DNA from: a virus
Lineage: Duplodnaviria > Caudoviricetes
IMG/VR virus record: IMGVR_UViG_3300037851_000418
Location: 1 to 45,410 of that record
Strand: one strand, 5' to 3'
DNA: 45,410 bases
Each line of letters starts with the position of its first letter. Position 1 is the first letter of the stretch. Below, piece after piece: positions 14,003 to 32,291 of the stretch. Under the pieces are notes generated by a model. The model was given only the letters and a program-made list of their open reading frames with translations. It was not told the origin of the DNA and did not search any database. The position numbers and the translations under genes were made by a program.

Positions 14003-14044
14003 GCCCTCCTCTCTCGTGGTGACTCCGGGAGGGGAGGGCTTTTT
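14003..14044 (+). terminator. Intrinsic terminator ending the late operon
   Basis: GCCCTCCTCTCTCG / CGGGAGGGGAGGGC stem followed by TTTTT. Confidence 0.8.
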
Positions 14045-14964
14045 CATGCCCTCGGGTGCGCCTGGTCGTACACCCGCCGGAGCCTCACGCGGGAGACGTG
14101 GGTGTAGATCTGGGTCGAGCTGATGTCCTCGTGGCCGAGGATTTCCTGGACGTCGCGCAGGCCGGCCCCATGGTCAAGGAGATGGGTCGCGCAGGAGTGA
14201 CGGAAGCGGTGGGGCCAGACTCGGCCTTGGATGCCGGCGATCATGGCGAGGGCGGTGATGTACTGCCGTGCCATGCGATCCGATAGCGGCCATCCACGGA
14301 GGCCTATCCAGAGGGGCGACTCCGCTGTGAGGACGTGTCCCTGCTCCCGGCGGTGCTCGATCCAGGCCTCGATAGCCCTCTTCGTCTCATGCGTGATGAG
14401 CAGCAGTCTCTCCTTCTGCCCTTTCCCGAGGACGAGGATCTCCAGCGATTCCAGACGGAGGTCTTGCATCCGCATCCCGCAGAGTTCCGAGACCCGGCAG
14501 CCCGAGGAGTACAGCGTTTCGAGGACGGCCCTCATGAGCGGCCAAGTCCTCGCGGTGTCCATGATCTGGCGAACCTCCTCCTCGCTCAGGGGCTTCGGGA
14601 CCGACTTCACCCGCCGGACTCCGCGGACCTCGCGCGGGATGTTCTCCCAGACGTAGCCCTCGCGCCGCAGCCAGGTATAGAGAGAGCGGACCGCGGAGAG
14701 CCTGTTGTTGATCGACCGGGGGGCAAGCTGGAGCTGGTCCCGCAGATGCAGGATATAGTTGTCCATCGTCCGAAACTCCAGGCGATCATATTGGACCTTG
14801 GCCGAGGCGAGCCAGCGGAAGAACAGGGTCCCCCCGTATTGGTACATCCGGATCGTGTTGTCGTTGTGTCCTCGAGCTCGAAGGTGGGCGATCCAGGAAT
14901 CGAGAAGCGCGGGCGGGGCGGCCTCTGGACGACAGGCCGCTGAAATCCGGTGTTCGGCGACCAC
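14044..14964 (-). CDS. XerC/XerD-like tyrosine recombinase (probable integrase)
   Basis: LYSSGCRVSEL, GKGQKER, PHRFRHSCATHLL, LGHEDISSTQIYTH, C-terminal HPRA; start uncertain (GTG 14964 gives 306 aa; frame open to 15072). Confidence 0.93.
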   Translation of the reverse strand: MVAEHRISAACRPEAAPPALLDSWIAHLRARGHNDNTIRMYQYGGTLFFRWLASAKVQYDRLEFRTMDNYILHLRDQLQLAPRSINNRLSAVRSLYTWLRREGYVWENIPREVRGVRRVKSVPKPLSEEEVRQIMDTARTWPLMRAVLETLYSSGCRVSELCGMRMQDLRLESLEILVLGKGQKERLLLITHETKRAIEAWIEHRREQGHVLTAESPLWIGLRGWPLSDRMARQYITALAMIAGIQGRVWPHRFRHSCATHLLDHGAGLRDVQEILGHEDISSTQIYTHVSRVRLRRVYDQAHPRA

Positions 14965-15124
14965 GTGATGCCACCGGAGACTCTCCTCCCCCGACCTCTC
15001 ATCCCCCCGATCCGGGCCTCCCTTTCCGATGCCTGTACGCCGTAGCCCCGGTCGCGCAACTTCCCTTCCCATTCAGTATACACGGAACCGGGAAATATAT
15101 TTTGAGAATAAATTCACTTTCCGC

Positions 15125-15286: not shown

Positions 15287-15314
15287 TTCGCCGGTAGCAA
15301 GGATTATCGGCGAA
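15287..15314 (+). promoter_or_regulatory. Hairpin with CAAGGA loop (CsrA/RsmA-type site)
   Basis: TTCGCCGGTAG-CAAGGA-TTATCGGCGAA upstream of the RBS of the first early gene. Confidence 0.5.
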
Positions 15315-15337
15315 TGGGCCTCGCGAGGAGGCGAGGC

Positions 15338-15778: not shown

Positions 15779-16113
15779 TCCAGGTGACGTGCTTCCTGTG
15801 CGGGCGCAAGCTCTACGAGTACGAGTCGGCCTCGAGAGACGGCGAGGTCTTCGGGGCGTGCTTCCCCACCTGCCCTGACTCTGATACCCCACCCGAGGCG
15901 GCCCCCAGTAGCGGACACGCCGGAGCCCCGGTAGCGCCCGTGGCCGCCTCCAGTCTTGAGGAGGGAGATCGGGACCGCCTGGACGAGAGGGGGAGCTGGC
16001 CGGCGGTAAGACGGCGGGGCTGGGTCACGTTTTTCGTCGTGATCGGCTCCATCCTGATCCCCGTCCTGGCGGCGGCTTTCCTGCTCTGGACCCGGGGGGT
16101 GCGGCCGTGGTGA
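15775..16113 (+). CDS. Zn-ribbon + C-terminal TM protein
   Basis: CFLC...CFPTC; C-terminal hydrophobic helix; GTGA overlap. Confidence 0.6.
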   Translation: MIQVTCFLCGRKLYEYESASRDGEVFGACFPTCPDSDTPPEAAPSSGHAGAPVAPVAASSLEEGDRDRLDERGSWPAVRRRGWVTFFVVIGSILIPVLAAAFLLWTRGVRPW

Positions 16114-16358
16114 AGGACCCCGAACTCCGCGCCCTCCGCCGCGATCTGCGCGCCCTCCTCTCGGCCTGGAGGAGGACGCTCAAGGAAGACAAGGCCCAGG
16201 GGCGCCGCTCCAGTGGATCAGTGGCGGGGGTCTACTACCGCGGGATCGCGGACGCGATGGCCCTCTGCATCCAGCAACTCAACTCTGTCATGTTTTCCCT
16301 CTCTGGGGGGGCTCCGGCTCACGCTGGGGCCCCCCGTTTTCCCCGGAGGCGGCTGTGA
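16107..16358 (+). CDS. Hypothetical protein
   Basis: 83 aa, overlaps both neighbours. Confidence 0.55.
   Translation: MVKDPELRALRRDLRALLSAWRRTLKEDKAQGRRSSGSVAGVYYRGIADAMALCIQQLNSVMFSLSGGAPAHAGAPRFPRRRL
16306..16340 (+). terminator. Putative early intrinsic terminator
   Basis: GGGGGGCTCCGGC-TCAC-GCTGGGGCCCCCC followed by GTTTT. Confidence 0.55.
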
Positions 16359-17170
16359 CGGAGATCCTCGAGGTCCGGCAGTCCGCCCTGAATGACTTCG
16401 AGCTGTGCGGGGAATCGTTCCGCCGCAAGCACATCGCGAAGGAACCCGCGCTCCCGGGGACTGCGGCCCTCCGCGGCGGCGCCGTCCACGTGGGCGCCCA
16501 GGCGAACCACCAGCAGAAGCGGGAGAGCCATAAGGACCTTCCGAAGAAGGATGTCGTCGACGCGGCCGTCGCAGGCTTCGAGGAGAAGAAGGCCCGCGAG
16601 GGATTCCGGCTCACGCCTGAGGAACTTAAGGTCGGCGTGAAGCCCGTTATCGCAAGGACCATCGACTCCGTAGTATCCCTCGCGGGACTCTACGCGGACG
16701 GCGTGGCCCCCAGACTCCAGCCCGACCTCGTCGAGCAGGAAGCTGCGTTCGACCTCCCCGGAGGCATCCGGTTCGGTGGCCGCCTCGACCTCTCCACGGC
16801 CGAGAAGATCGTGGACATCAAGACGGCCTCGCGGTCGAAGAGTCAGAAGGACGCCGACGAGTCCCTCCAGGGGACGATGTACTGGCTCCTCTACCGGGCC
16901 CTCACGGGGCGCGACCCCATCAGCTTCGACCTCGAGGTCCTCGTGGACCTCAAGACCCCGAGGGCTCAAACCCTCACGACGACCCGGGGAACCAGGGACA
17001 TCCAGGTCCTCGTCAACCGGGCGAACGTGATGCTCCGGTCGATCAAGGCCGGGCTCTTCGCGCCGGCCCAGGTGGGGAGCTGGGTCTGTTGCCCCAAGTG
17101 GTGCGGTTTTTTCTCGGACTGCCCTTTTGTAAACGGTGAACGGTTGGCCGCTGCGGCGGCCCAGGACTGA
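16355..17170 (+). CDS. PD-(D/E)XK RecB/Cas4-like exonuclease
   Basis: GGAVH, GRLDL, IVDIKT, QGTMY; N-terminal Cys plus C-terminal CCPKWC...C (Fe-S staple pattern). Confidence 0.85.
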   Translation: MTEILEVRQSALNDFELCGESFRRKHIAKEPALPGTAALRGGAVHVGAQANHQQKRESHKDLPKKDVVDAAVAGFEEKKAREGFRLTPEELKVGVKPVIARTIDSVVSLAGLYADGVAPRLQPDLVEQEAAFDLPGGIRFGGRLDLSTAEKIVDIKTASRSKSQKDADESLQGTMYWLLYRALTGRDPISFDLEVLVDLKTPRAQTLTTTRGTRDIQVLVNRANVMLRSIKAGLFAPAQVGSWVCCPKWCGFFSDCPFVNGERLAAAAAQD

Positions 17171-17183
17171 AAGGAGACGGATC

Positions 17184-18155
17184 ATGGCGAACGGAAAGAA
17201 CCAGGTCACGGCGACCCCGCTGACGGACAGTGAAGAACTGCCGAGCATCCCCCAGGAGCTGATCTCCCAGGGGAAGGCGCTCCAGAAGGCGGGGACGCCC
17301 TTCGTGACGGCCCTCTCCGTGCAAAAGCCGCGCAACCTCGACAAGGTCGTCGCGGCCATGGAAAACGAGGCGAAGTACGCGGGGGCGAAGTTCTGGTACA
17401 AGCTCCCCTTCGGCGGGGGCATCGAGGGGCCGTCGATCGGACTGGCCGTCTCGCTCGCGCGCGAGTGGGGCAACTGCGCGGTCACGATGGATGTGCAGGA
17501 GACGGACGAAGCCTTCTTCTTCACCGGCCGATTCATCGACCTCGAGAAGGGCTACCAGCTCGAGAGGGCCTTCCGGCAGCGCAAGAGCCCCAAGCTCGGG
17601 AAGTTCGACGCCGAGCGGACCCAGGACATCGCCTTCCAGATCGGCCAGTCGAAGACCATCCGGAACGTGATCCTCAATAGCGTCCCCCGCTGGCTCGTCG
17701 AGCGGACGATCCAGGCGGCGAAGGCGGCGGTTGCGGCCGGGATCACCCCGGAGAAGCTCATCGCCGAGCGGAAGAAGATCGTCGAGGCCTTCGCGGCGAA
17801 GAAGGTCTCCCTCGAGCGCCTGGTCGCCAAGATCGGCAAGGGGATGACCGAGTGGACCGCGTTCGACATCGCGGACCTCCGCGGGGACTACTCGGCCCTG
17901 ACCTCCGGGGATGCGACCATCGAGGAGCTCTTCCCCTCCTACGTCCCCCCGGCCCCCGCGGGCCCCATCAACGTCGACGACCTCCCGGTCGCGGGTAGCG
18001 CCCCCAAGGCCCAGGAGGCCCCCCGCTCCGACGCCGACGACTCCATGACCGAGGAGGAGAAGGCCGCGGCCGTCGAGCTGGAGAAGGCAGAGGCGAAGGC
18101 CCCCGCGAAGAAGCCCGAGCAGAAGCAGAAGGGCCCGGGCGGTCTCTTCGGATAG
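17184..18155 (+). CDS. Putative ssDNA-annealing/recombination protein
   Basis: AAGGAG RBS; follows the exonuclease; YKLPFGGGIEGPSIGLAVSLAREWGN motif; disordered tail ending GGLFG; function inferred from position. Confidence 0.55.
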   Translation: MANGKNQVTATPLTDSEELPSIPQELISQGKALQKAGTPFVTALSVQKPRNLDKVVAAMENEAKYAGAKFWYKLPFGGGIEGPSIGLAVSLAREWGNCAVTMDVQETDEAFFFTGRFIDLEKGYQLERAFRQRKSPKLGKFDAERTQDIAFQIGQSKTIRNVILNSVPRWLVERTIQAAKAAVAAGITPEKLIAERKKIVEAFAAKKVSLERLVAKIGKGMTEWTAFDIADLRGDYSALTSGDATIEELFPSYVPPAPAGPINVDDLPVAGSAPKAQEAPRSDADDSMTEEEKAAAVELEKAEAKAPAKKPEQKQKGPGGLFG

Positions 18156-18178
18156 TTCCCCTCACTCTCCCTGAACAT

Positions 18179-18202
18179 GGGGGTCCCCGCTTGGGGGCCC
18201 CC
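18179..18202 (+). other. Intergenic GC hairpin
   Basis: GGGGGTCCCC-GCTT-GGGGGCCCCC; no U-tract. Confidence 0.5.
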
Positions 18203-18226
18203 GGTATGCGGAGACGGAGGTAGAAG

Positions 18227-20509
18227 ATGAAGCTCACGACGGCAGGCCTCAAGGCCCGGGACCACCAGGTCGAGATCGGCGGGCTCAACGTCCTGGTCGG
18301 CCCGAACGGCAGCGGCAAGTCCTCGATCGCGGACGCGATCCGCTTCTTGGCACTGGGCTACGTTCCCTCGTTGGGAAAGCGCCCGGTGGACACCGCGGTC
18401 CTGATGAGCGATCGGGAAATCATGGTCTCTCTCGATCTTCCCGGGGCTCGCTCCGTCTCTCGCACCATGGTCCGGACGGACAAGGGCTACCAGGTCGGGG
18501 CCGGGTGCTCATGGCTCCGGAGCGCCAAGGCGAGCGAGTCCTCGAAGGAGATCACGGCCCTCTTCGGCGCCGAGGAGCAGGACGTCGCGGAGTGCCTGGA
18601 CATCCGCCAGCTCCTCGCCGCGACTCCGAACCAGCGCGCGGCCCGCATCGAGCAGCTCCTCTCGGCGGGCAAGCGCACCCCGGAGGAGACCGCGGCCGCC
18701 GTCGCGCGCCTCACGATCCAGCGGCTCATCGACGTCCCCGATGACCGGATGCCCGCGGACTACAAGCAGGCCCTCCCCATGGTCGCCGAGGGCCACGCCG
18801 AGGTCCTCCGAGAGGTCGCGGGGATGCTCCTGGCGAAGATCACCGAGGCCGGGATCACCGGGGCGCTCTCGTGGGCGAACGAGGAGAAGCGCGGCGCCGC
18901 GAACGGCCTCCAGGCGAAGACGAAGGCCGAGCAGGAGCTCCGCCTCCGCGCGGCCGAGGTCCCCGAGCCCGACGAGCGCGAGATCAAGCGGCTCGAGGGG
19001 GAGCGCGACAAGCTCCAGCGCGCCCTCGGGGCCCTGGTGCAGCAGAAACAGGAGTACGACCGGCGTCTCGTCCGTCGCCGGCAGATCGAGTCCACCATCG
19101 GTAGCCTCCAGGAGATGGCCTCCCGATCCGGCCAGGCCCTCGCGGCTGCGGAGGCCACAGAGGGGAAGACCCTCGCGGACCTCCAGGATCGGAGCGCGGC
19201 CCTCCTCCAGGACCTCGAGAGCATCGAGGCCCCGGCGGATCCAGATCGGACCCGGATCACGGAACTCATGGAGGAGTACGACGCCCTCGAGGCCAAGCTC
19301 GCGGAGATCCCCGCCGAGGCCCCGATCCCAGATCCCAGCGATCTCGGGACCCGGGTACGCGATCTGGAGCGCCAGATCGAGCAGGCGAAGGCAAATCCGT
19401 GGGCCGAGGTCCTGGAGATCACCGAAGACCTCCGGGGGCTCAAGCTCCGGACTCCTGCGGCGGACAAGCTGGGGATCGCCATCCGTCGCCTCGACAGGAT
19501 CGCCAGAGAGAATCTCGGGGGCTCGATCGAAGACATGGAAGCCGATTTCGCGCGCGCGAAAAAGGAATTGGGGTTGGCCCTGAAGGCTCGGGCCAAGGCA
19601 ATCGAGGCCGCCGAGAAGATCGAGGGCCGGCGGGAGTCGATCGAGGCCCGCCGCGACGCCATCAGCCGTGAGGTCCATGAGCTAGAGATCTCCCTCGATC
19701 GCGAGCGAACTCAGGGCATGGACGCCTACAACGCCCGCCGGCGGAAGCTCGCCGCCGAGCGCCAGGCCGTGGAAGGGGACCTCCAGAGGCAGCAGCAGAC
19801 CCTCCAGTACCTCCGCGAGAAGGCGGCCGGGGATCAGCGCCGCCTCGCCTCTCTCCAGGATGAACTCCGGGGAGTGGGCGAGCTCGGGGAAGCACCCCAG
19901 GACCACGCAGCCCTCGATCAGCAGCTCGGGTACGTCCGGGAGGCCCTGGACCGGCTCTCCCGTGCCCGAGCGGTACACGAGGAGATCCGGGCTGTCCTCG
20001 CCTCGATCGAGGCGGCCAAGTCCCGGCGCGATGTCTACGCCGCGATCGAGTGGGCCCTCCAGCGGCAGCGCGAGATCGAGATCAGCTCGGCCGGGGGGCC
20101 CCTCCTCCAGGTGATGACGCGATTCTTCCAGGCCGCCGGCCGGCGGGAGCAACCCTTCATCCGCGCTGGCGCCGGCTCCTGCGCCATCGGCTGGCGGCAT
20201 CCGGACGGGGAGGAGATCCAGGTCCAGGCGCTCTCCGGGGGCGAGTGGTGTCTCTTCGCGGCCGCGCTCACGTCGGCCGTCATCCTCTGCCGGCAGTCCC
20301 AGCTCAAGGTCCTCCTCGTCGAGGCGGGCGAGACGGACGACCTGCACCTGGCGCAGCTCCTCGCGGGCGTCCGGGCGGTCTCCCAGGAGGGCCAGGTCCT
20401 CGACGCCCTGGTGATGGTCCCCAGGTGGCCGACCATCGAGGCTGCTCGGGGGTGGAACACGATCGAGATGGTCGAGGGGATGCCGATCGCCGCCGAGAAG
20501 GTGGCCTGA
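18227..20509 (+). CDS. SMC/Rad50/SbcC-like ABC ATPase
   Basis: Walker A GPNGSGKS, long coiled coil, signature LSGGE, atypical Walker B VLLVEAGETD. Confidence 0.85.
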   Translation: MKLTTAGLKARDHQVEIGGLNVLVGPNGSGKSSIADAIRFLALGYVPSLGKRPVDTAVLMSDREIMVSLDLPGARSVSRTMVRTDKGYQVGAGCSWLRSAKASESSKEITALFGAEEQDVAECLDIRQLLAATPNQRAARIEQLLSAGKRTPEETAAAVARLTIQRLIDVPDDRMPADYKQALPMVAEGHAEVLREVAGMLLAKITEAGITGALSWANEEKRGAANGLQAKTKAEQELRLRAAEVPEPDEREIKRLEGERDKLQRALGALVQQKQEYDRRLVRRRQIESTIGSLQEMASRSGQALAAAEATEGKTLADLQDRSAALLQDLESIEAPADPDRTRITELMEEYDALEAKLAEIPAEAPIPDPSDLGTRVRDLERQIEQAKANPWAEVLEITEDLRGLKLRTPAADKLGIAIRRLDRIARENLGGSIEDMEADFARAKKELGLALKARAKAIEAAEKIEGRRESIEARRDAISREVHELEISLDRERTQGMDAYNARRRKLAAERQAVEGDLQRQQQTLQYLREKAAGDQRRLASLQDELRGVGELGEAPQDHAALDQQLGYVREALDRLSRARAVHEEIRAVLASIEAAKSRRDVYAAIEWALQRQREIEISSAGGPLLQVMTRFFQAAGRREQPFIRAGAGSCAIGWRHPDGEEIQVQALSGGEWCLFAAALTSAVILCRQSQLKVLLVEAGETDDLHLAQLLAGVRAVSQEGQVLDALVMVPRWPTIEAARGWNTIEMVEGMPIAAEKVA

Positions 20510-20539
20510 TCCCGGAGGGGGAAACGGAAGGAGAGAGGC

Positions 20540-20818
20540 ATGGGCACGATCCACCACGGCGCGGAGATCACGGAGGGGGGACGGTACGACCGCTTCCTTG
20601 CCTACCTCCGCGACCACCCGGGGGCGACCACTCGGCAGATCATCGACGACACGGGTCTCTGTGCGGTCTCCGCGATCGTGTCCGAAATCCGCGCGATGAA
20701 GAAACCGCTCCGGATCGAGTGCCGCTACGTCGGCAAGACGGAGAACGGCTCCCGGGTCTACCGCTACTACCTGATCGAGAACGCGGCCCAGGTGATCAAG
20801 AGGGAACTGTTCGTATGA
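20540..20818 (+). CDS. Winged-helix DNA-binding protein
   Basis: YLRDHPGATTRQII...VSAIVSEIR plus beta-wing; 92 aa. Confidence 0.65.
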   Translation: MGTIHHGAEITEGGRYDRFLAYLRDHPGATTRQIIDDTGLCAVSAIVSEIRAMKKPLRIECRYVGKTENGSRVYRYYLIENAAQVIKRELFV

Positions 20819-22254
20819 GCGCCGCCCGGAAACTCTTCGTGGCCGCGGACCTCTTCTGCGGGGGCGGCGGCTTCTCCCGCGGGTTCGCCCTCGCGTGCGA
20901 GGACCTCGGCATCCGAAACGTCCGTCTAATCGCGATCAACCACTGGCGCGCCGCGGTCGAGACCCACGCGAAGAACCATCCCTGGGCCGAGCATCACTGC
21001 GCCCGGGTGGACCAGCTCGATCCCCGGAAGCTCGTGCCCGATGGTCGCATGAAGATCCTCATTGCCTCGCCCGAATGCACGAACCACGCGAACGCCCGGG
21101 GCGGGCGGCCCATCAATGACCAGTCCCGCGCGACGGCCTGGGACGTCGTGAAGTGGGCCCAGGAGCTCTACATCGAGAACATCCTGATCGAGAACGTGCG
21201 GGAGATCATGGATTGGGGCCCGCTCGGGGCGGATGGTTACGCGCTCAAGTCGCGGAAGGGCGAAATCTTCAGGCAATGGGTCGAGTCCATCCGGGCCTGC
21301 GGCTACCACTTGGAGCACCGCATCCTGAACGCCGCGGACTTCGGGGGCGCGACTACCCGACAGAGGTTCTTCCTCATCGCGAGAAGGATTCCCCGGCGCG
21401 TTATTTGGCCCGAGCCGTCGCACTCCAGGGACGCGGTCAATGTGGGCGACCTGTTCCACCGTGGGCTCAAGCCCTGGCGGGCCGCTCGCGAGGTCATCGA
21501 CTGGACGCTTATGGGGAGGAGCATCTTCGGTCGCCCGAAGCCTCTCGCGCCGAATACGCTCATGCGGATTGAGGCGGGGCTGCGGAAGTTCGGCGGGGTC
21601 GCCGCCAAGCCGTTCATCATCCTCCTCCGCGGGACCTCGAAGGGGCGGATCAACAGGAGCGCGCGATCGACGGGCGAACCACTTCCGACGATCACGGCCG
21701 GCGGGATTCATGCGGGCCTGTGCGAGCCCTTCATGGTCTCGATCGATCATACGGGTCCGGTGAAGGCCAAGCCTTTCCTCGTGCAGCCTGCCCACGGTGG
21801 GGGTGTGAGCGGCAGGGTCCATTCTGTCGAGGAGCCGCTACGGACGATCACGACCGAGAACCGATTCGGTCTCGTCCAGCCGTTCATCCTCCAGCAACAG
21901 AGCGGTGGGGTCCCGAGGTCCACGGAAAAGCCTCTGCCCTCGATCGCCGCGAAGGGGGCCCAAGCCCTCGTCCAGCCCTTCCTCGTGAAATACAACCGCA
22001 CGGGCCGCGCGAACTCGATCGAGAAGCCGCTCCCGACCGTGACGGCCGTCGACCGACTCGGCTTGGTCCAGCCGCAGGCCCAGGGCGTCGTCGTGGACAT
22101 CCTCTTCCGGATGCTGGAGCCGCACGAACTCGCGCGCGCGATGGGCTTCGAGGGCTACGAGTTCCAGGGTACGAAGAAGGACCGGATCAAGATGATCGGA
22201 AACGCCGTCGAGGTCAACACGGCAAAGGCTCTCGTGAAAGCGATCTTGCAGTAA
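20815..22254 (+). CDS. DNA (cytosine-5) methyltransferase
   Basis: ATG 20815; DLFCGGGG, SPECT, ENV, TTRQRFF, IGNAV; four (E/K)PLxTIT-type repeats in the variable region; 479 aa. Confidence 0.92.
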   Translation: MSAARKLFVAADLFCGGGGFSRGFALACEDLGIRNVRLIAINHWRAAVETHAKNHPWAEHHCARVDQLDPRKLVPDGRMKILIASPECTNHANARGGRPINDQSRATAWDVVKWAQELYIENILIENVREIMDWGPLGADGYALKSRKGEIFRQWVESIRACGYHLEHRILNAADFGGATTRQRFFLIARRIPRRVIWPEPSHSRDAVNVGDLFHRGLKPWRAAREVIDWTLMGRSIFGRPKPLAPNTLMRIEAGLRKFGGVAAKPFIILLRGTSKGRINRSARSTGEPLPTITAGGIHAGLCEPFMVSIDHTGPVKAKPFLVQPAHGGGVSGRVHSVEEPLRTITTENRFGLVQPFILQQQSGGVPRSTEKPLPSIAAKGAQALVQPFLVKYNRTGRANSIEKPLPTVTAVDRLGLVQPQAQGVVVDILFRMLEPHELARAMGFEGYEFQGTKKDRIKMIGNAVEVNTAKALVKAILQ

Positions 22255-22304
22255 CTCGGAGTCAGGGGTTCCCGGGGGCTCTGGAGATGAGGAGGTCGGA
22301 GGAG

Positions 22305-22814
22305 ATGAGCAGGGGAAAGCGTGCGACCGTGGGGGATGAGGGGGGACCGCCAACCCCCTCCCAATCTTCTGCGGACGGCTGCCCGAAGTGCGGCTACAGC
22401 CAATTCGACGCGCTCCACTCCGAGCCCGGGGAGCTGGAGCGCCGCCAGTGCAAATCGTGCGGCGAGGTCTACGGGGTGAAGCCCGCGGACCGGGAGATAT
22501 CGGTTTTCGACGGACAGGAACAGGAGGAGACGATGGCGAAAGAGAAGACGGCCGGGAAATTCAAGTGCGACATCTGCGGACGGGACGACTTCAAGACCGA
22601 CCAGGGAATGAAGCACCACAAGACGACCACGCACGGGAAGGGGAAGGAGAAGCCGGTGGGCATCAGGAGGGCCGGGCTTGCGGGGGGGCCGCTCTCGACG
22701 CCGAGCCCCCGGCAGCAGATCCTCGCGGACCTGGGGAAGCGGAAGGCCCAGGCGCTCGCCGCCGTGGCCGAGCTCGACGACCTCATCGACGCGATCGAGA
22801 AGGCGGGGAGGTAG
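22305..22814 (+). CDS. Double zinc-finger protein (C4 ribbon + C2H2) with internal in-frame start at 22533
   Basis: CPKC...CKSC, then AGGAGGAG-ATG, then FKCDICGRDDFKTDQGMKHHKTTTH. Confidence 0.65.
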   Translation: MSRGKRATVGDEGGPPTPSQSSADGCPKCGYSQFDALHSEPGELERRQCKSCGEVYGVKPADREISVFDGQEQEETMAKEKTAGKFKCDICGRDDFKTDQGMKHHKTTTHGKGKEKPVGIRRAGLAGGPLSTPSPRQQILADLGKRKAQALAAVAELDDLIDAIEKAGR

Positions 22815-22816
22815 GC

Positions 22817-23047
22817 GTGGCGAAGAAATCGGATGTGCCCACCTTCTGCCAGGCGAAGACGCTCAATGACCTCGGGAACCGGGGCGCTCACCTATTCGAC
22901 GTGACCTCGTGGTATCTCCCCAGCGTCCTCAAGGCCCTGGCCGTTCGTGGCTGGGTCACGCAGCGGAAGTTGAAGATTTACCGCACGTCCGGCGGGACGA
23001 GCGCGCTCAGGAGATACCGGGAGCAATCCGGGGGTGCGATGTTATGA
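22817..23047 (+). CDS. Small hypothetical (possible wHTH) protein
   Basis: GGAGG RBS, GTG 22817; 76 aa. Confidence 0.55.
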   Translation: MAKKSDVPTFCQAKTLNDLGNRGAHLFDVTSWYLPSVLKALAVRGWVTQRKLKIYRTSGGTSALRRYREQSGGAML

Positions 23048-23631
23048 AGACCAAGCGTCCCCTCTCCGTCCTCCAGCCCGTGGCCGAGGAGCTGCTCGCG
23101 CTGCTCTCCCTGTCATGCAGAAGGATCTCCATCGCAGGGAGCATCCGGAGGCGGTGCGCGGAGGTCGGCGACATCGAGCTTGTGGCCGTCCCCCGCATCG
23201 AGCGCGTCGCCCTCCCCGCCCAGCAGCAACAGGACTTCTGGGGCGATCCGCCGGCGGACCAGGAGGTCAACTTCCTCTGGCGGCAGCTCGACGGCCTCGC
23301 GGAGAAGATAGGCCCGCGATTCGAGCGCCTGAAGTGGGGCGACAAGTACCGCGCCTTCCGCTGGCCGCTCCCGCACGAGATAGGGTCCGTCCAGGTAGAC
23401 CTCTTTACCGCCGAGGAGGATAACTGGGGGCTTATCCTCCTCATCCGCACCGGGAGCGCGAAGTTCTCCCAGCACGTCGTAACCCAGCTCAAGCGCCGAG
23501 GCACCCCATCGCAGGGAGGTTACGTCCGCGGCTCCAAGGGGACGCCGATCCCCACCCCCACCGAGGAGGAGGTCTTCAGGCTCGCGGGGATGCAGTATCA
23601 CGCGCCGGAGGAAAGGGGATGGGTGAGTTAG
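23044..23631 (+). CDS. Minimal PolX / DNA polymerase beta-like nucleotidyltransferase
   Basis: IAGSIRR...GDIELV, VDLF, IRTGSAKF, TEEEVFRLAG...PEER (palm + thumb only); 195 aa. Confidence 0.85.
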   Translation: MKTKRPLSVLQPVAEELLALLSLSCRRISIAGSIRRRCAEVGDIELVAVPRIERVALPAQQQQDFWGDPPADQEVNFLWRQLDGLAEKIGPRFERLKWGDKYRAFRWPLPHEIGSVQVDLFTAEEDNWGLILLIRTGSAKFSQHVVTQLKRRGTPSQGGYVRGSKGTPIPTPTEEEVFRLAGMQYHAPEERGWVS

Positions 23632-23638
23632 ACGCGGA

Positions 23639-23661
23639 TGATCAATAAGGAGAAGGCTGTG
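23639..23661 (+). repeat. Cassette boundary site 1
   Basis: TGATCAATAAGGAGAAGGCTGTG; 17/23 identical to 24037-24059. Confidence 0.65.
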
Positions 23662-24039
23662 GATATTGTCGTGACGGTCCCCAAGGGCATATGGTTTGAC
23701 TGGATCAACGAAGGCGATCTACCCGGCGATCCTCCTACCGGGGAGGAATGGGGTTTCGCGACCTGGGGCCCAGAACCCGGCATCAAGGCCGGAGAGCGTG
23801 TCTACATCGTAGCCCACGGACGGCTCCGGGGATATGCGCCACTCACTCGGTACGAGTATCGTCACGTCGGAAGCGGTCAAGGTCATGTCGCCTTTAGGCG
23901 TTCCGGGGGAGCCGTGGCCGTGACTATTGCTGAGCCGATCCGTGGCTTTCGCGGATGGAGATATCGCTGGTGGAATCTGGATGACGAGGTGCCATTCCCG
24001 GACTGGAAGACAACTGGCGTGGAACTTTGCCGCCGTTGA
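23659..24039 (+). CDS. Hypothetical protein (cassette A)
   Basis: TAAGGAG RBS, GTG 23659 (ATG 23638 also in frame); Trp/Gly-rich; lower GC. Confidence 0.75.
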   Translation: MDIVVTVPKGIWFDWINEGDLPGDPPTGEEWGFATWGPEPGIKAGERVYIVAHGRLRGYAPLTRYEYRHVGSGQGHVAFRRSGGAVAVTIAEPIRGFRGWRYRWWNLDDEVPFPDWKTTGVELCRR

Positions 24040-24059
24040 TTACTAAGGCGAAAGCCATG
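24032..24059 (+). repeat. Cassette boundary site 2
   Basis: GCCGTTGATTACTAAGGCGAAAGCCATG; left half shared with site 3, right half with site 1. Confidence 0.7.
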
Positions 24060-24236
24060 AAACGGAAAGATAAAAATAGGGCGCTTAAAGATAAGTGCCA
24101 AGAGTATATCCGCAGAACGAAAACCCTTCCCGATGCTACGAAGCTCGGAAAGCGTGAGGGCTTTTCGGCTAACTTTGCCGTGTGGCTGTCGGCTGCGAAC
24201 GAGATGTTGAGGGCCGGGTGGGAACCGAAGCCGTAG
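24057..24236 (+). CDS. Small basic protein (cassette B)
   Basis: 59 aa MKRKDKNRALK...; low GC; exactly fills the gap between sites 2 and 3. Confidence 0.65.
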   Translation: MKRKDKNRALKDKCQEYIRRTKTLPDATKLGKREGFSANFAVWLSAANEMLRAGWEPKP

Positions 24237-24248
24237 ATTACTAATCGG
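24230..24248 (+). repeat. Cassette boundary site 3
   Basis: GCCGTAGATTACTAA (14/15 match to 24032-24046), continuing as the palindrome GATTA-C-TAATC. Confidence 0.7.
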
Positions 24249-24254
24249 ACGGGC

Positions 24255-24283
24255 TTGACTATGCGCCTTTCGTGGGCTATACT
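24255..24283 (+). promoter_or_regulatory. Near-consensus sigma70 promoter upstream of the minimal recombinase
   Basis: TTGACT-17 nt-TATACT. Confidence 0.8.
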
Positions 24284-24362
24284 AATGACGGTTGGACTCC
24301 TCGGGGCCGTGCGGTCCCGGGGCATTTCGGACACTTCGGCAAGGCCAGAACGGACTCTGCCC

Positions 24363-24986
24363 GTGTTCAGTTCAACCACCTCCTGGTCCCTCCCCCGCGA
24401 GAAGTGCATCACCCGCCCGGAGATCGGCCGCATCCTCGCCCAAGCCAAGGAGACATCCCCCGCGGATTACGTCTTCCTGGCAACCGCCATCAACACCGGC
24501 CTGCGGATGTGCGAGGTAGTCCACCTCAAGAAATGCGACTTGCTCGACGGCCAGCTTCGCATCACCCGCCGAAAGAAGAAGAACCTCAAGCCCGAGGTCA
24601 TCGACGTAGTGCCCGCCCTCTGGGCCGTGCTGGCAGAGTGGGGCCAGATGTTCCAGGGCGACGAGTGGCTGTTCCCGGGCCGGGCCGGAGCTTGCTTCGT
24701 CCATCGGAAGAACGGCGCGGTCATCCAGGTCTGCAACGGGGGCCACGTCTCCCGGCGCAATATGCAGCGCCGCTGGGATGTCATCCTGCGGGGCGTCGAT
24801 CTCAAAATGCCCGGCCGGGGCATTCACTCGGCCCGGCACTACGCCGTGACCCGGTTCTACGAGGATACCCGGGACCTCCGCGCCTGCCAGATGTTCGCGG
24901 GCCATTCATCTAGCATGATTACCGAGCGGTATGCCCATGTGCTGGAGATGCGGGAGAAGGTTCAGTCGATGGGGGCTAGTTTGTGA
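24363..24986 (+). CDS. Catalytic-domain-only tyrosine recombinase
   Basis: NTGLRMCEV, RRKK, HSARH, AGHSSSMITERY; no N-terminal core-binding domain; start uncertain (GTG 24363 or 24309). Confidence 0.88.
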   Translation: MFSSTTSWSLPREKCITRPEIGRILAQAKETSPADYVFLATAINTGLRMCEVVHLKKCDLLDGQLRITRRKKKNLKPEVIDVVPALWAVLAEWGQMFQGDEWLFPGRAGACFVHRKNGAVIQVCNGGHVSRRNMQRRWDVILRGVDLKMPGRGIHSARHYAVTRFYEDTRDLRACQMFAGHSSSMITERYAHVLEMREKVQSMGASL

Positions 24987-25756
24987 AGCGCGTCGTTATG
25001 TTTAGTGGGGGCGTGGGCTCGTGGGCCGCTGCGAAACGAGTTGTCGAGCGCTATGGTCCAACGGACGTAACGCTCCTATTTGCAGATACGCTTATGGAGG
25101 ATGAGGATTTGTACCGCTTCCTAGATGAGGCGGCACAGGACATCGGTGCTCCGCTCGTCCGGCTCTGTGATGGTCGTAATCCCTGGGAGGTCTTCTTCCA
25201 GGAGCGATACTTGGGCAGTAGCCGCATCGATCCATGCTCCAAGATACTGAAGCGAAAGCCCCTTGATCGTTGGCGCAACCTAAACCTAAACCCAGAGACG
25301 GACGTGGTTTATGTCGGCATCGACTGGACCGAAGTGCATCGCCTCGACAGGCTGCGTAAGCGCGTTGATCCATGGAACTACCAAGCCCCAATGTGCGACC
25401 CGCCCTATCTCAGCAAGAAAGATATGTTAGCGGCGCTTTTGAGGGCTGGAATCAAACCGCCTCGGCTGTATGAGATGGGCTTCCCGCATAACAATTGTGG
25501 GGGATTCTGTGTAAAAGCCGGACAGGCGTGGTTTAAGAACCTCTTGGAGAAGATGCCAGACCGCTATCATTTTCACGAGCAGAAAGAGCAAGAGATTCGC
25601 TCTTTTCTGGGAAAAGACTTGGCGATCCTAAGACATCGGAGTGGTCCTAAGGCGGGTCAACCCATGACCCTTCGCGAGTTCCGGCTCATCCTAGAGGCTC
25701 GCGGCGAAACCGACTTGTTTGAGTGGGGTGGTTGTGGTTGCGCCTTACCGGGTTAG
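24983..25756 (+). CDS. PAPS-reductase-like (PP-loop) protein
   Basis: MFSGGVGS, FADT, CSKILKR, HNNCGGFCVKAG, terminal GGCGC; lower GC. Confidence 0.8.
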   Translation: MKRVVMFSGGVGSWAAAKRVVERYGPTDVTLLFADTLMEDEDLYRFLDEAAQDIGAPLVRLCDGRNPWEVFFQERYLGSSRIDPCSKILKRKPLDRWRNLNLNPETDVVYVGIDWTEVHRLDRLRKRVDPWNYQAPMCDPPYLSKKDMLAALLRAGIKPPRLYEMGFPHNNCGGFCVKAGQAWFKNLLEKMPDRYHFHEQKEQEIRSFLGKDLAILRHRSGPKAGQPMTLREFRLILEARGETDLFEWGGCGCALPG

Positions 25757-25757
25757 T

Positions 25758-25779
25758 TCGCAATAGCAAGGATATGCGA
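25758..25779 (+). promoter_or_regulatory. Hairpin with GCAAGGA loop (CsrA/RsmA-type site)
   Basis: TCGCAATA-GCAAGGA-TATGCGA upstream of the XRE gene RBS; shares TAGCAAGGAT with 15295-15304. Confidence 0.5.
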
Positions 25780-25802
25780 TTTCGAGGAGATAGGAGGAGA
25801 CG

Positions 25803-26198
25803 ATGATTGAAACATTCGGCGCCATCATCCGGAAGGCCCGGCGCGATCGCGAGCGCACCCTGGAGCAGGTCGCGAAGGCGATCCAGTCCCACAAGGGCTA
25901 CGTCTCGGGGATCGAGAACGGGAAGGTCCGCCCCCCGTCCCAGAGGATCACCCGGAAACTCTGCCGCTATCTCGGCCTCGACTACCAGGAGATGCTCGCC
26001 CTCGCCTGGTGGGAGAAGCGGCCGAAGGACCTCGGTATCCTCCCGGCAATGCGGCTCCTCGAGCGCATCAAGAACGAGAGCGCGCTGCTCAGGGCCGAGG
26101 AGGAGGCGAAGGTGCAGACGCCGGATATCGGCAAGGCGGCAGATGCCGGGAGGACCCTGGCGGCCCTCGCGCCGGCGCCGGCGACGAAGGAGGGGTAG
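25803..26198 (+). CDS. XRE-family HTH transcriptional regulator
   Basis: FGAIIRKARRDRERTLEQVAKAI...YVSGIENG; AGGAGGAG RBS. Confidence 0.88.
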   Translation: MIETFGAIIRKARRDRERTLEQVAKAIQSHKGYVSGIENGKVRPPSQRITRKLCRYLGLDYQEMLALAWWEKRPKDLGILPAMRLLERIKNESALLRAEEEAKVQTPDIGKAADAGRTLAALAPAPATKEG

Positions 26199-26250
26199 CC
26201 TGCGGATGTCCCGCAGGATCGAGATAGGAAACCAGTTAGGAGAGACGGAG

Positions 26251-26622
26251 ATGCCCAAGAAATTCGAAGGCGACCTGGAGGTAACCCTCTCATCGAGGGG
26301 AAGGAAGGTCAAGATCCGGCCCCAGCAGGAGTTCCCCAACTTCCGCCCCGATGCGATCAAGGACATCGACGAGGCGGCCGATGATTACCGCTCCGCGTGC
26401 GACGAGCTCAAGGAGGCCCAGGGAGTCAAGAAGCAGCGGGCCGAGGAACTCGCCGCAAGGATGGCGAAGTACAACGTCCCCCTCTACCGCCTGGACGACG
26501 ACTACGTCCTGGCCCTCGAGGACAAGCGCAGCGTCTCGCTCAAGAAGATCAAGAGCCTGCGGGCCAAGGCCGCGCCCCAGGAAGGGGACGCCACGAAGGC
26601 GGAGCTCGCCGGCCATGAGTAG
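26251..26622 (+). CDS. Hypothetical protein
   Basis: 123 aa MPKKFEGD...; purine-rich RBS. Confidence 0.65.
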   Translation: MPKKFEGDLEVTLSSRGRKVKIRPQQEFPNFRPDAIKDIDEAADDYRSACDELKEAQGVKKQRAEELAARMAKYNVPLYRLDDDYVLALEDKRSVSLKKIKSLRAKAAPQEGDATKAELAGHE

Positions 26623-26983
26623 CCCGACCCAGCGCAGCCTGAAGCTCCTCCGCGAGGACGGGTTCGCGGCCGCCGTGGTGGAACACTGGAATCCCCACGC
26701 GTTCATCCGCCAGGACCTATTCGGCTGGATCGACATCATCGCCGTCCACCCAGCCCACCAGGGCGTCGCGGGCATCCAATGCACCTCGGGCGACAACGTG
26801 TCCGCGCGTGTCAAAAAGGCCAAGGGCAACGCGGCGCTCCTCGCCTGGCTCGCCGCCGGCAACACCTTGGCCGTCCACGGCTGGGTCAAGAAGAAGGCCG
26901 TGAAGCCCGACGGCACGCTCACGAAGCGCGAGGTCTGGGCGGTGAGGACGGTGCCGGTCACGAGGGAGGAAGTTGGGGGATAG
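26615..26983 (+). CDS. PD-(D/E)XK nuclease (Holliday junction resolvase-like)
   Basis: ATG 26615; QDLFGWIDIIAV...GIQCTS; 122 aa. Confidence 0.7.
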   Translation: MSSPTQRSLKLLREDGFAAAVVEHWNPHAFIRQDLFGWIDIIAVHPAHQGVAGIQCTSGDNVSARVKKAKGNAALLAWLAAGNTLAVHGWVKKKAVKPDGTLTKREVWAVRTVPVTREEVGG

Positions 26984-26986
26984 ACG

Positions 26987-27913
26987 ATGGCTTGGATTCA
27001 GCTTCACCAGGAGCTCCCGGATCACCCGAAGCTCCTCCACCTGGCCCAGCTCCTCGGCCTGGACGATCCGGATGTCGCTCGGGCGAAGCTCGAAAACCTG
27101 TGGCTGTGGTGCGCCTCCTACTGCGTTCACGGTCGCCTCACGGTCGCCCACGGGGGGGGTCACGCCCCTCTCACGCCCCTCCAGGTAGCTCGGGCCGCTC
27201 GCTGGCACGGTGACCCCACGCTCCTCTTACGGTCACTCATCGAGTCCGGATGGATCGACTCAGTGCAGGGTGGGCCCGGAGGGGCTACGTTGCAAATCCA
27301 TGACTGGCAAGACTATGCAGGGAAGTACATAGAGCTTCGTGCGCGTAACGCTGACCGCATGAGAAAGGCACGCGCGACTCACGTGCAACACACGTTACGC
27401 GCACGTGCGGGGCAAGAGGAGACAACAGCAGCAGAGAGGAGAGGAGAGGAGACAACAGCAGCAGAGAGGACCGGGGATTCCATCCCCCGGGGCCCCTCCT
27501 CCACGACTCCCGGCCCATCGAGCGCCATCCGCCATCCCACGTTAGAACGACCGAACTACCGGATCGGATTGCGGCTGCTTGCTGCTGCTGCTCCGGACTT
27601 GGGGGAAGAGGTTAAAGCCAGCGCGGCCGTTGAGTTACCCATCAGGGAAATCACGGCGATCCGGCTCGAGGCCCAGGCTCAGCGTAACCCCGCCGGCTGG
27701 GTGCGACGCGCCATCGAGAAGCGGTGGAAGCGGGACGCGGAGATACCGCCCGAAGTTCAAGACGAGCTGCTCACAGAGATCGAGAGGGGCAACGGGGCTC
27801 CTTTGGAGATTCCCCGCGTCTGCCGCTCCCCACGTCCCCGCCTCGACGGGGAGAGTGAGGACGATTATCTCCGGCGAGTGGAGGCCGCGAAGAAGGGGGA
27901 GGCCAAGACGTGA
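26987..27913 (+). CDS. Phage replication initiator protein
   Basis: MAWIQLH...HPK...LWLW...IHDWQDY...RMRKAR N-terminal domain; internal repeat cluster as in lambda O-type genes. Confidence 0.75.
   Translation: MAWIQLHQELPDHPKLLHLAQLLGLDDPDVARAKLENLWLWCASYCVHGRLTVAHGGGHAPLTPLQVARAARWHGDPTLLLRSLIESGWIDSVQGGPGGATLQIHDWQDYAGKYIELRARNADRMRKARATHVQHTLRARAGQEETTAAERRGEETTAAERTGDSIPRGPSSTTPGPSSAIRHPTLERPNYRIGLRLLAAAAPDLGEEVKASAAVELPIREITAIRLEAQAQRNPAGWVRRAIEKRWKRDAEIPPEVQDELLTEIERGNGAPLEIPRVCRSPRPRLDGESEDDYLRRVEAAKKGEAKT
27369..27470. repeat. Putative replication origin
   Basis: CACG at 27369/27380/27391/27402 (11-bp period), then a 26-bp purine-rich direct repeat at 27415-27440 and 27445-27470. 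Confidence 0.65.
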
Positions 27914-28194
27914 GCCGTTACCGTCGCCACCGGCGGAAACACCAAGGGGAGAGCACGATCTGCAACCCGAATCCCCATTGCCGGAGCTGCCTGGGGACGG
28001 GCTGGGTTCAGGATGAGCAGCTCTCGCCGATCACTCGGGAGACGACCGAGGGGCCGGTGAGGTACGCGCCCCCGATGAGGCGCTGCTCATGCGTCTACAG
28101 GAATTCGGGCTCAGGAGACGGACCACCGAAGCCCGAGGATATGCCTGGGGCGATCGACCAGATGCAGCGGGCATCGGGAGAGAGAAGGGAATAA
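27910..28194 (+). CDS. Small Zn-binding protein
   Basis: C...CRSCLGTGW...RRCSC; GTGA overlap with rep. Confidence 0.65.
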   Translation: MSRYRRHRRKHQGESTICNPNPHCRSCLGTGWVQDEQLSPITRETTEGPVRYAPPMRRCSCVYRNSGSGDGPPKPEDMPGAIDQMQRASGERRE

Positions 28195-28517
28195 TGATCC
28201 GAGTACCTAAGACGCATAAGCCCCGCGATCCTATCTTCGATCGCGAGAACTGGATCAGACATGGGATCGACGCACTGCAACGAGAGCGGGCCATCGAACG
28301 CAAGATGCGGCTCGTCCCCATCTGGTCGGATATGTGGTGGCGCTATCTTGCCAAGCTCGACGACGTGAGGACAGAGAGAATACGCGAGAGGCTGTTCGAG
28401 GCTGTTGAGTTAGTCGAGGCCTATCATGCGAGCAAGAGCGCAAAGCGTCCTAAGTCGTTTGATTTCGCAGAGCCTACCAAGGACTTACGCACGGGTCCTT
28501 CCTGGAGGGGCGAATGA
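28194..28517 (+). CDS. Hypothetical protein
   Basis: TAATG coupling; 107 aa. Confidence 0.55.
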   Translation: MIRVPKTHKPRDPIFDRENWIRHGIDALQRERAIERKMRLVPIWSDMWWRYLAKLDDVRTERIRERLFEAVELVEAYHASKSAKRPKSFDFAEPTKDLRTGPSWRGE

Positions 28518-28530
28518 TGGGGCCCCTTGG
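28475..28530 (+). other. Putative cos packaging region (cosQ-like GGGTCCT at 28493-28499)
   Basis: ACGGGTCCTT as at lambda cosQ; IHF-like TACCAAGGACTTA at 28475-28487; lies upstream of the nuclease and terminase genes. Confidence 0.55.
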
Positions 28531-28577
28531 TTTACGTGGTTTTGAGATATGAACGTGTCGGAATAGGAGTCGTCGTC

Positions 28578-29039
28578 ATGAATGAGCAGGACGCCGAGGA
28601 GCTGAGGAAGTATCTCGAGGCCAAGGGCGAGCGGGCCCGTGAAGCCTCCCTCATCCGGAAGTACGGGATCGACGCAGAGGACTACGGCCGAATGCTGGCC
28701 CGCCAGGACGGGAGGTGCCTGATCTGCGGAAGCATCGGGAGCGTCCGGTGGAACCCGAGGGCCGGAGACTACCAGACGCAACGCCTCGTCGTCGACCACG
28801 ATCACAAGACGGGCAAGATCCGGGGCCTCCTATGCCACGGATGCAACGGCCTGCTCGGGGAGATAGAGGCCAGGCCCGGGAGGCCGAACGCTCCGCTCGT
28901 CACGGCCGGCCAGGGGGAGCCCCCTTGTGTGGACCCGGCGCTCACGGGCGAGGACAGGATCAGGGCGGTCTGCCGGGCGAGCTGGCGGGAGCACCTGGCG
29001 GACCGCGTGATTCTCTACCTGGAGGGCAAGCTCGCGTGA
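28578..29039 (+). CDS. Endonuclease VII-family HNH nuclease
   Basis: KYGI...QDGRCLIC...VDHDHKTGKIRGLLCHGCN; AGGAG RBS. Confidence 0.9.
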   Translation: MNEQDAEELRKYLEAKGERAREASLIRKYGIDAEDYGRMLARQDGRCLICGSIGSVRWNPRAGDYQTQRLVVDHDHKTGKIRGLLCHGCNGLLGEIEARPGRPNAPLVTAGQGEPPCVDPALTGEDRIRAVCRASWREHLADRVILYLEGKLA

Positions 29040-29503
29040 AGAGTCGGCAGCGTGAGCCCGTGGTGACGGGGGCGGAGATCCGCCGGCGCCTGGGGATTGT
29101 CGACCGGACGATGAGCCGGTGGTTCGCGGCCGGGCTCCCGGTGGTCTCGCGGGACCAGGCGGGGAGGAATCCCCGGGTAAAGCTCTGGGACCTGGCGAAG
29201 TGGCTCCACGACAAGGACGCGGGGATAGACGACCCGGACCTGACGCACGGTGGAGGGACTTCGGCGAACCTGGAGAAGTACCGGAAGGAGAAGGCGCGGC
29301 AGGCGAAGCGGGAGAACGACGTGGCGGAGGGGCGGCTGGTGGACGTCGAGGAAGTATGGCGCATCCAGGGCGAGGTCTTCGGGGCTATGGGTCGGGAGCT
29401 GGAAGCGGTAGAGCGGGTGCATGGGCCGGCGGTGGGCCAGGCGATCCGTGAGGCGCTCGCTCGGGCTCGGGAGTCCGGGAGGAAGGGAGGGCTCGTCTCG
29501 TGA
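29036..29503 (+). CDS. Terminase small subunit (Nu1-like)
   Basis: N-terminal wHTH (RRLGIVDRTMSRW...GLP), coiled coil, GRLVD motif; GTGA overlaps. Confidence 0.78.
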   Translation: MKSRQREPVVTGAEIRRRLGIVDRTMSRWFAAGLPVVSRDQAGRNPRVKLWDLAKWLHDKDAGIDDPDLTHGGGTSANLEKYRKEKARQAKRENDVAEGRLVDVEEVWRIQGEVFGAMGRELEAVERVHGPAVGQAIREALARARESGRKGGLVS

Positions 29504-31476: not shown

Positions 31477-31697
31477 TGGTCAAGCGATTCGTTTCGTTCG
31501 AGCGCACGGAGGAGGCGAAGCACGTCCGCTCCGATGAGGAGCGTTTCGTTTGGGCCTTCTTCCATTTCATGGCCCGGGGCGCGCTCGATTCGGAGTCCAA
31601 AGTGGCGAAGGAATGGGAGAAGTACAAGACAGATCGCGGATGGGAGGGCTTGGAAGTGTGGAGGAACGGGAAGGGCGAATGGGAAGCGAGAAGATAG
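31476..31697 (+). CDS. Hypothetical protein
   Basis: TGATG coupling; 73 aa. Confidence 0.55.
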   Translation: MVKRFVSFERTEEAKHVRSDEERFVWAFFHFMARGALDSESKVAKEWEKYKTDRGWEGLEVWRNGKGEWEARR

Positions 31698-31721
31698 GTA
31701 TGGGTTGCGGAGCTTCGCAAG

Positions 31722-31922
31722 GTGCTGGTGGAATCCCTTGAGGAGGTAAGGAGGGGAAAGATGGATTCAAGGAAGGCTTCCTCCATCTCGGCCCTTTCTG
31801 GCCAGGTTCTACGTTCCTGCCGACTCGACCTGGAGTTCATCCGGCTCCAGAGGTCGAGCGGGAAATTCAGCGGAGGATGCGGCTCGATGCGGCTGCTCGG
31901 TCCGGTCCCGAAGATGCGGTAG
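31722..31922 (+). CDS. Small helical hypothetical protein (start uncertain)
   Basis: 66 aa; same frame as the upstream gene. Confidence 0.45.
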   Translation: MLVESLEEVRRGKMDSRKASSISALSGQVLRSCRLDLEFIRLQRSSGKFSGGCGSMRLLGPVPKMR

Positions 31923-31933
31923 TATCTTACCTC

Positions 31934-31971
31934 CCCGGGGTAGGGCCCGCATGGACTACCCCGGGTTATTT
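31934..31971 (+). terminator. Intrinsic terminator upstream of the Ogr-like gene
   Basis: Perfect 10-bp stem CCCGGGGTAG/CTACCCCGGG followed by TTATTT. Confidence 0.6.
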
Positions 31972-31992
31972 GATGGAGACAGGAGGATAAAG

Positions 31993-32256: not shown

Positions 32257-32291
32257 GCCCCTTTCGGCCTCTAGCACCCCGTACAACGGAG

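Follow-up and report, generated by a model that had tools for sequence, protein, structure and literature searches.

Three related short sites in a temperate phage genome delimit two single-gene units directly upstream of a promoter and a small tyrosine recombinase, and we put at about 40% the probability that this 207-aa recombinase drove the capture of both genes, A and B. Such capture is narrowly favoured over shuffling by short-homology recombination, and the short sequence shared by the sites is likely a docking site for added genes. The window, i.e. the whole stretch of 45,410 bp that was analysed, is the complete genome of a temperate phage, circularly permuted, with a terminal repeat of 254 bp, and Pfam matches indicated that it encodes terminase, portal and a full-length integrase. 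A Planctomycetota label is attached to one cluster relative. The locus belongs to the early, co-directional part of the genome and has a DNA methylase/PolX-like block on one side and an HTH/replication block on the other. The relevant features are as follows:

14044..15072, minus strand: full-length phage integrase with an N-terminal SAM-like domain (Pfam PF00589 and PF02899)
16355..18155, plus strand: PD-(D/E)XK exonuclease and the adjoining phrog_3657 gene
23044..23631, plus strand: PolX-like gene, upstream flank, codon use typical of this genome (Pfam DNA_pol_B_thumb, E 4e-7; GC3 0.88)
23634..23661, plus strand: site 1; left flank ending in AT, degenerate core GATCAATAA (23640-23648), SD and GTG start of gene A
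23659..24039, plus strand: gene A, 126 aa, widespread phage hypothetical protein
24021..24059, plus strand: site 2; GGAAC-N6-GCCGTT, core GATTACTAA (24038-24046), SD-like sequence and ATG of gene B
24057..24236, plus strand: gene B, 59-aa ORFan, GC 0.52
24221..24254, plus strand: site 3; GGAAC-N4-GCCGTA, core GATTACTAA (24236-24244), palindrome GATTA-C-TAATC
24255..24283, plus strand: predicted sigma70-type promoter, TTGACT-17-TATACT
24363..24986, plus strand: catalytic-domain-only tyrosine recombinase, 207 aa (Pfam Phage_integrase, E 2e-17), with a Cys/His beta-hairpin after WLFP
24983..25756, plus strand: PAPS-reductase-like accessory gene (phrog_424, E 3e-55; GC 0.55), overlapping the recombinase stop
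25803-26198: HTH protein, neighbour of the recombinase

A first-pass annotation of this DNA had described sites spaced by 398 and 198 bp, and these values were correct when the coordinates were recomputed. The same was true of the match between the right halves of sites 1 and 2 (17/23) and of that between the left halves of sites 2 and 3 (14/15). The half-sharing geometry, which had been read as the trace of sequential integration of promoterless circles, is real in the sequence. The site-1 core differed from the other two at 2/9 positions, and the stop codon of gene A sits within site 2. Both units had the low GC content claimed for them (unit A, 0.595; unit B, 0.515; genome, 0.65). GC3 was 0.61-0.62 for gene A and 0.63 in frame for gene B; in four other genes (PolX-like, methylase, recombinase, HTH) it was 0.85-0.92. 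The array contained only two units. Gene A had 1,526 homologues, the best of which, apart from itself, was at 78%, and it had no Pfam or PHROG match; the nearest named Atlas cluster, Pua-like at 0.89, is only a lead towards a PUA/ASCH-like protein. The GGAAC of gene A falls in a C-terminal G-V-E/Q-L stretch that is present in its homologues too, and the junction motif was absent from all nine other phages carrying gene A. The homologue search with gene B recovered only itself.

Genome-wide, 18 pairs of sequences within 500 bp matched at 14/15, and sites 2 and 3 formed the most AT-rich of them. Among gene junctions such matches were rare: only 3 of 2,103 control pairs reached at least 14/15 (nine control loci, with the window, L013 and L014 excluded). 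The two best of the 136 junction pairs in the window were the two adjacent ones, sites 2/3 and then sites 1/2, the latter at 12/15. The pattern GATYAMTAA, a core definition made post hoc, was found on the + strand just at these three consecutive junctions and once on the - strand. The similarity of sites 1 and 2 might reflect only a shared ribosome-binding site and start, a caution already raised in the earlier annotation. The SD-to-start part (12/16) was indeed equalled or beaten by 10 of the 509 other predicted starts, which are heuristic gene calls, but the full 17/23 was reached by none of them. The right half shared by these two sites is largely an SD plus a start codon.

The structural claims about the sites did not hold. 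The bulged hairpin proposed for site 2 folded no better than shuffles (z = -0.67). The inverted arms around a 6-bp spacer, reconstructed for the circle of unit B, matched at 6/7, and arms of this quality were also found in 143 of 4,000 shuffles (3.6%) and in 532 of 4,000 random pseudo-junctions (13%). When the circle-B register was applied elsewhere, circle A scored 3/7 and the empty sites 1-2/7; the two circles and the platform had no dyad in common. The site-3 palindrome was centred 2.5 bp from that of circle B. Folding of sites 1-3 gave z values from +1.4 to -0.7; the circle A junction folded at -3.4 against a shuffle mean of -4.0, and the circle B junction at -6.8 against -3.9 (sd 1.6). 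An attC-like reading of the sites was rejected on these folding values and the missing shared dyad. No joint between sites was found in the contigs of a source-like run at a depth of ~12, contigs being assemblies that drop rare forms. The X1 contigs break near 23980.

A close relative carries what resembles the empty site. A wetland contig from runs X2 and X3 (one sample) encodes an enzyme 96% identical to that of the window. Among the matches listed between this contig and positions 12500-32400 of the window, the common parts were the methylase gene and 24236-24955, and 6,021 unrelated letters separated the two blocks on the contig. The second block begins exactly at 24236, the G of the site-3 core, so that site 3 forms the left edge of the module common to the window and this relative. 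The left flank of the contig ends in CAAT and the junction therefore reads AT/GATTAC, a form that it shares with site 1 but not with site 2 or site 3; removing 23640-24235 from the window yields AT/GATTACTAAT, the same form as in the relatives. The empty site that had been proposed as a check was thus seen in its predicted form, but mosaicism at a gene boundary would also give it, since the T-G-A at this point falls where site 2 has its stop. The right breakpoint, at 24955, falls within the recombinase coding sequence, which indicates that ordinary mosaic recombination occurs at this locus. The PAPS-reductase-like gene lies outside the span matched by this relative. Over 720 bp the window and X2 showed 41 base differences but only 5 amino-acid changes, consistent with purifying selection on the recombinase. 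A third variant, P0336, differs from both the window and X2, and its N-terminus, called from ATG, is MITNKTGLTMRL (MITNKTGL). Judging from these codons, AT would precede a core-compatible sequence there as well; the bases immediately right of the core were altered (R to K).

We propose that a promoter-plus-recombinase module, shared by unrelated temperate phages, starts at the GATTACTAA core, and that genes A and B were inserted at this core in succession, likely as small circles. The joining would be carried out by a catalytic-domain-only tyrosine recombinase, presumably this enzyme and not another. Crossover would fall where the core begins on its left side, at GAT or immediately before it, and would need little spacer identity. 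Each insertion would keep the old left flank at the far site, so that site 1 remains ...AT/GAT, and would regenerate a site beside the promoter (site 3); the array would therefore grow away from the recombinase. Expression of the units would come from the early operon upstream, with an SD and a start supplied by each unit itself. How phages gain clean-edged accessory genes is a long-standing question, and the usual answer is illegitimate or relaxed homologous recombination followed by selection. If the capture reading is true, gene insertion at a 9-bp core by an enzyme of 207 aa that lacks a core-binding domain would amount to a dedicated mechanism, and the enzyme to a very small tool for recombination. 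Enzyme, platform site and two donor sites are all available at this locus, and a conserved second recombinase of temperate phages needs explaining even if capture fails.

The promoter reported to follow site 3 was located at 24255-24283. Consensus promoter matches in 14000-32500 numbered 4 against 1.6 expected. Of the 12 loci of relatives that were scored, 8 had a good sigma70 consensus 85-180 bp 5' of the recombinase; promoter scores were poor in L001, L003, L004 and L005. The catalytic set R-K-H-R-H-Y, described as intact, was found as R47, K70, H154, R157, H180 and Y189 (numbering from 24366), and the Cys/His insertion after WLFP as C110, C123 and H127. A homologue search recovered 66 proteins, with identities of 36-96% for 65 of these, and a profile search returned 28 clusters at E below 1e-30. 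The six catalytic residues together with H53, C110, C123 and H127 were invariant in 58/58 aligned sequences, a subset of the 66 matches; R, K, H, R, H and Y were also invariant in 36/36 sequences of a wider set. The AlphaFold model of the recombinase had a pLDDT of 93.6, and VIA structure comparison gave Z scores of 17.5 with XerH (rmsd 3.0, 185 aligned), 16.4 with lambda Int and 16.4 with IntI4. As modelled, the recombinase has the lambda-Int-type catalytic fold, matching the catalytic domains of these three proteins.

About 47 aa precede the catalytic R. The C110-C123 beta-hairpin amounts to about 16 residues more than in simple recombinases, and the spacing from R to HxxR was 103-111 in 59 of the 60 family members measured, compared with about 90 in most simple recombinases. 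The Cys and His residues of the hairpin may bind metal. In P0063, P0197, P0199, P0204 and L003 the hairpin is enlarged by a zinc finger-like CxxC...HxxxxH insertion of ~50 aa. The RRKK and GRGIH motifs were specific to the 207-aa family, and no description of this family was found among the papers that the literature searches listed. A separate full-length integrase was present in the window and in 5/5 viral relatives; hence the mini recombinase likely has another job. A recombinase-like domain also occurred as a C-terminal fusion on longer proteins (P0207, P0210, P0213, P0196 and P0209). P0207 and P0210 match Ser/Thr kinase models and P0213 is similar in appearance, which could point to defence as one use of the domain.

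More distant relatives were less consistent with an array. At the last junction before the recombinase, no repeat of at least 14/15 was found in any of 11 loci (L001-L006, L008, L011, L013, L014 and L016), several of which had <1.2 kb of upstream DNA. The best scores there were 10-13/15, the 13 being that of the SD-containing L014 motif. Analysis of 11-mer enrichment detected no cassette-like array in five phage genomes. Junction repeats of 14-15/15 were found in L001 and in L005, at a distance from the recombinase; among the matches listed the neighbour genes were mostly unrelated across loci. For the expectation that homologues would show variable gene content bounded by the same motif, the evidence was mixed: gene content varied on both sides of the recombinase and the module edge lies at the core in X2, and the 11 distant loci lack the repeat. 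The idea of a distinct phage gene-capture system fared similarly, with the geometry, the empty-site form and the variable content speaking for it, and the site structure and the distant relatives against it.

In a sister clade, the enzymes are 56-62% identical to that of the window and a different motif was found. AAGCATYGGTGAG is present in L014 as 10 co-oriented copies against 0.54 expected; by our reading of the sequence, 9 of these copies lie at junctions of short genes. L013, L008 and L019 carry the same motif. A motif model scored at least 17 in the sister clade alone, the best control reaching 16.3 in 291,710 bases. L014 and L019 have different genes between two motif copies, with homologous flanks. 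The motif includes GGTGA, which belongs to the SD consensus, and the majority of its copies are >2 kb from the enzyme. This GGTGA content and the likeness to start-associated sequences make the link between motif and enzyme circumstantial. The L014 model found nothing in the window, so the similarity of the motif to the core is too weak for homology. L008 carries a 15/16 direct repeat on both sides of promoter plus recombinase, which suggests that the module itself may be mobile. A broader reading would take the minimal, probably metal-binding, tyrosine recombinase family as the temperate phages' own non-integron capture platform, with a short junction motif in each lineage (GATTACTAA here, AAGCATYGGTGAG in the sister clade) serving to add or swap single-gene units of the early operon, and with the recombinase gene itself travelling as a unit; we regard this generalization as rather unlikely.

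We compared the locus with known systems. By sequence, the 207-aa recombinase is not an IntI. A specific insertion in the catalytic domain defines IntI (PMC8138268). The annotated absence of this insertion was confirmed by an anchor-to-anchor interval of 35 profile positions versus 62 residues in IntI4; the end of the family's hairpin aligns at the IntI4 RRHH, and the interval is ~27 residues shorter than that of IntI4. With the IntI model TIGR02249 the recombinase scored 27.7 bits against a cut-off of 265, no family member was at IntI level (best E 5e-19), and the recombinase missed the cut-offs of the IntI, Xer and Fim models by a wide margin. Like integrons, which in their true form are reported from phages (PMC9892861), the locus has a tyrosine recombinase by promoterless single-gene units, related sites and a platform site at the enzyme's promoter. 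Unlike integrons, it is without a core-binding domain, an IntI insertion and an attC-like hairpin, and its units, just two, lie upstream and are co-directional, whereas integron units are divergent. By analogy, the system would work like an integron and yet not be one. FimB/FimE invertases, about 200 aa, likewise consist of the catalytic domain only, but the recombinase scored 16.5 bits against the 222 cut-off of the invertase model, and no convincing intergenic inverted pair that could bound a switch was found among the 25 longest of 177. The second phage integrases of PHROG 216 are similar in length (about 200 aa) and by match (phrog_216, E 2e-30). The ~16-aa Cys/His hairpin and the RRKK/GRGIH motifs set the recombinase apart from both groups.

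Three phage systems described in the literature share single aspects of the locus. PeSL cassettes of T4-type phages are ORFans in variable regions between repeats, with circles proposed; PMC2839356 describes them as ~100-bp promoter/stem-loop elements and ascribes them to homologous recombination, whereas here 9-23 bp are shared beside a site-specific recombinase gene. The start-associated sequences of cluster K mycobacteriophages are short co-oriented motifs just before starts (PMC3203893), a description that suits the L014 clade; no link to a recombinase was found in this source, and the window sites differ in spanning the upstream stop, one of them preceding a promoter instead of a start. 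MrpR/SroF repressors have an integrase fold beside a real integrase (VIA Z 11.9-12.8), but MrpR (PMC10516654) keeps the core-binding domain and has lost most catalytic residues, the opposite of the family here.

Recombinase-driven capture has to be weighed against three other explanations. A serious possibility, though one we rate below even odds, is that the repeats are boundaries used by short-homology recombination (Red/Rad52-like or of the host), while the recombinase, as a mobile accessory gene that carries a promoter, has its substrate elsewhere, in its own module, the chromosome of the host or dimers of the genome. The phage indeed encodes an exonuclease beside an unassigned gene (phrog_3657), which by its position is possibly the annealing partner. 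The right breakpoint with X2 inside a coding sequence, the L001 and L005 junction repeats away from the recombinase, and the distant relatives without an array agree with this explanation. So does the literature: PeSL mini-circles arise by recombination between repeats (PMC2839356), phage recombinases promote exchange of diverged sequences (PMC3945230), and the repeats before mycobacteriophage genes are proposed recombination targets (PMC3203893). At 9-15 bp, the repeats here are nevertheless short compared with ~100-bp PeSLs (PMC2839356), and short homology leaves unexplained both the core at the exact edge of the recombinase module and the + strand restriction of the motif to these junctions. 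We consider it improbable that the core is instead an operator for the HTH protein or the recombinase, placed before the promoter and two accessory genes and involving no strand exchange. The centre of GATTA-C-TAATC is 14 bp 5' of the -35 box, operator-like palindromes lie over promoters near the gene in L003/L004, TCACCG half-sites mark the leader start in L008, L011, L013 and L014, and recombinase-fold phage repressors exist (MrpR; PMC10516654). The full palindrome is, however, missing from sites 1 and 2, and there is no core at the other predicted early promoter, 15125; moreover, MrpR keeps only 3/7 catalytic residues (PMC10516654), whereas the 207-aa family keeps all.

Least probable of all is a single local duplication of ~15-35 bp round an inserted ORFan (sites 2 and 3), with chance and SD/start likeness accounting for site 1 and no system involved. 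It would suit the common SD-to-start match (10/509), the non-significant palindromes and the presence of just two units, but not the 17/23 reached by 0/509 starts, and it requires coincidence twice, once for the best two junction pairs being neighbours and once for the core standing at the module edge. For recombinase-driven capture itself speak this module edge, the AT of P0336, the rarity of the junction repeats, the low-GC units, the invariant catalytic residues, the second integrase, the sister-clade motif and the L008 direct repeat. Against it stand the 11/11 distant loci without a junction repeat, the five phage genomes without arrays, the missing shared dyad, the 2/9 deviation of the site-1 core and the GGAAC that also lies within the stretch of gene A homologues. 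The left breakpoint at a stop codon could also come from ordinary mosaicism, the shared AT is only 2 bases, P0336 is changed right of the core, and the sister-clade motif is SD-like and mostly >2 kb from the enzyme.

Scans of viral contigs yielded little beyond these loci. The site-3 16-mer had 4 matches, none with a recombinase. TRNA-like genes in L030 (3182-3197) and L032 (7001-7016) have the anticodon loop TTACTAA, identical to the site-3 core, and the two 16-mer matches in tRNA-like sequence were rejected as related sites and judged to be chance. In the same contigs, a leader 17-mer gave only 2 unrelated matches, an extended site-plus-promoter pattern gave 0 matches and a single-protein scan gave 0 distinct loci; alignment-based scans returned the same 5 phages both times. 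GTDB genomes gave one weak match, and INPHARED gave distant integrases only. A search of the window DNA gave no Rfam match and no tRNA.

Several further arrangements were observed near the relatives' recombinase genes. Densely packed short genes, unrelated to one another and each preceded by a GAATCGAAGCATYGGTGAG-like motif of ~20 bp, were seen in L014 (7260-10479), L013 (3402 and 10214-10513) and L019 (851-1126); some L013/L014 genes presumably resemble HicAB, DUF4258/DUF2283, nucleotidyltransferase and toxin-antitoxin genes. L014 also contains a 117-bp duplication, 90% identical, of a gene 3' end right before its start (3280-3396 / 4112-4228), and L008 retains a 46-bp gene-end remnant present in L014. 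In L008 (758-1614) and L011 (4907-5700), an inverted GC-rich repeat of ~20 bp brackets the recombinase gene, and two half-motif palindromes of the CTTCGG-TGA(C/G)TCA-CCGAAG type directly follow its stop. A palindrome scan found none over threshold near the gene in the window, L002, L005, L013, L014, L016 or L018. L003 (~5960-6020) and L004 (~5980-6030) have three operator-like palindromes over a TTGACA promoter ~200 bp after the recombinase; they were rejected as recombination sites, as they overlap TTGACA promoters and look like operators. L008, L011, L013 and L014 share a conserved 5' leader of ~100 nt before the gene, which starts with TCACCG and holds a GC-rich hairpin and GCGCGAGGGCAGAAAGG; the window leader has only CTCGGGGCCG in common with it. 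The late region of the window was seen to carry three genes of the glycosyltransferase family, together with a low-GC beta-helix gene (7163-9368 and 10214-11488).
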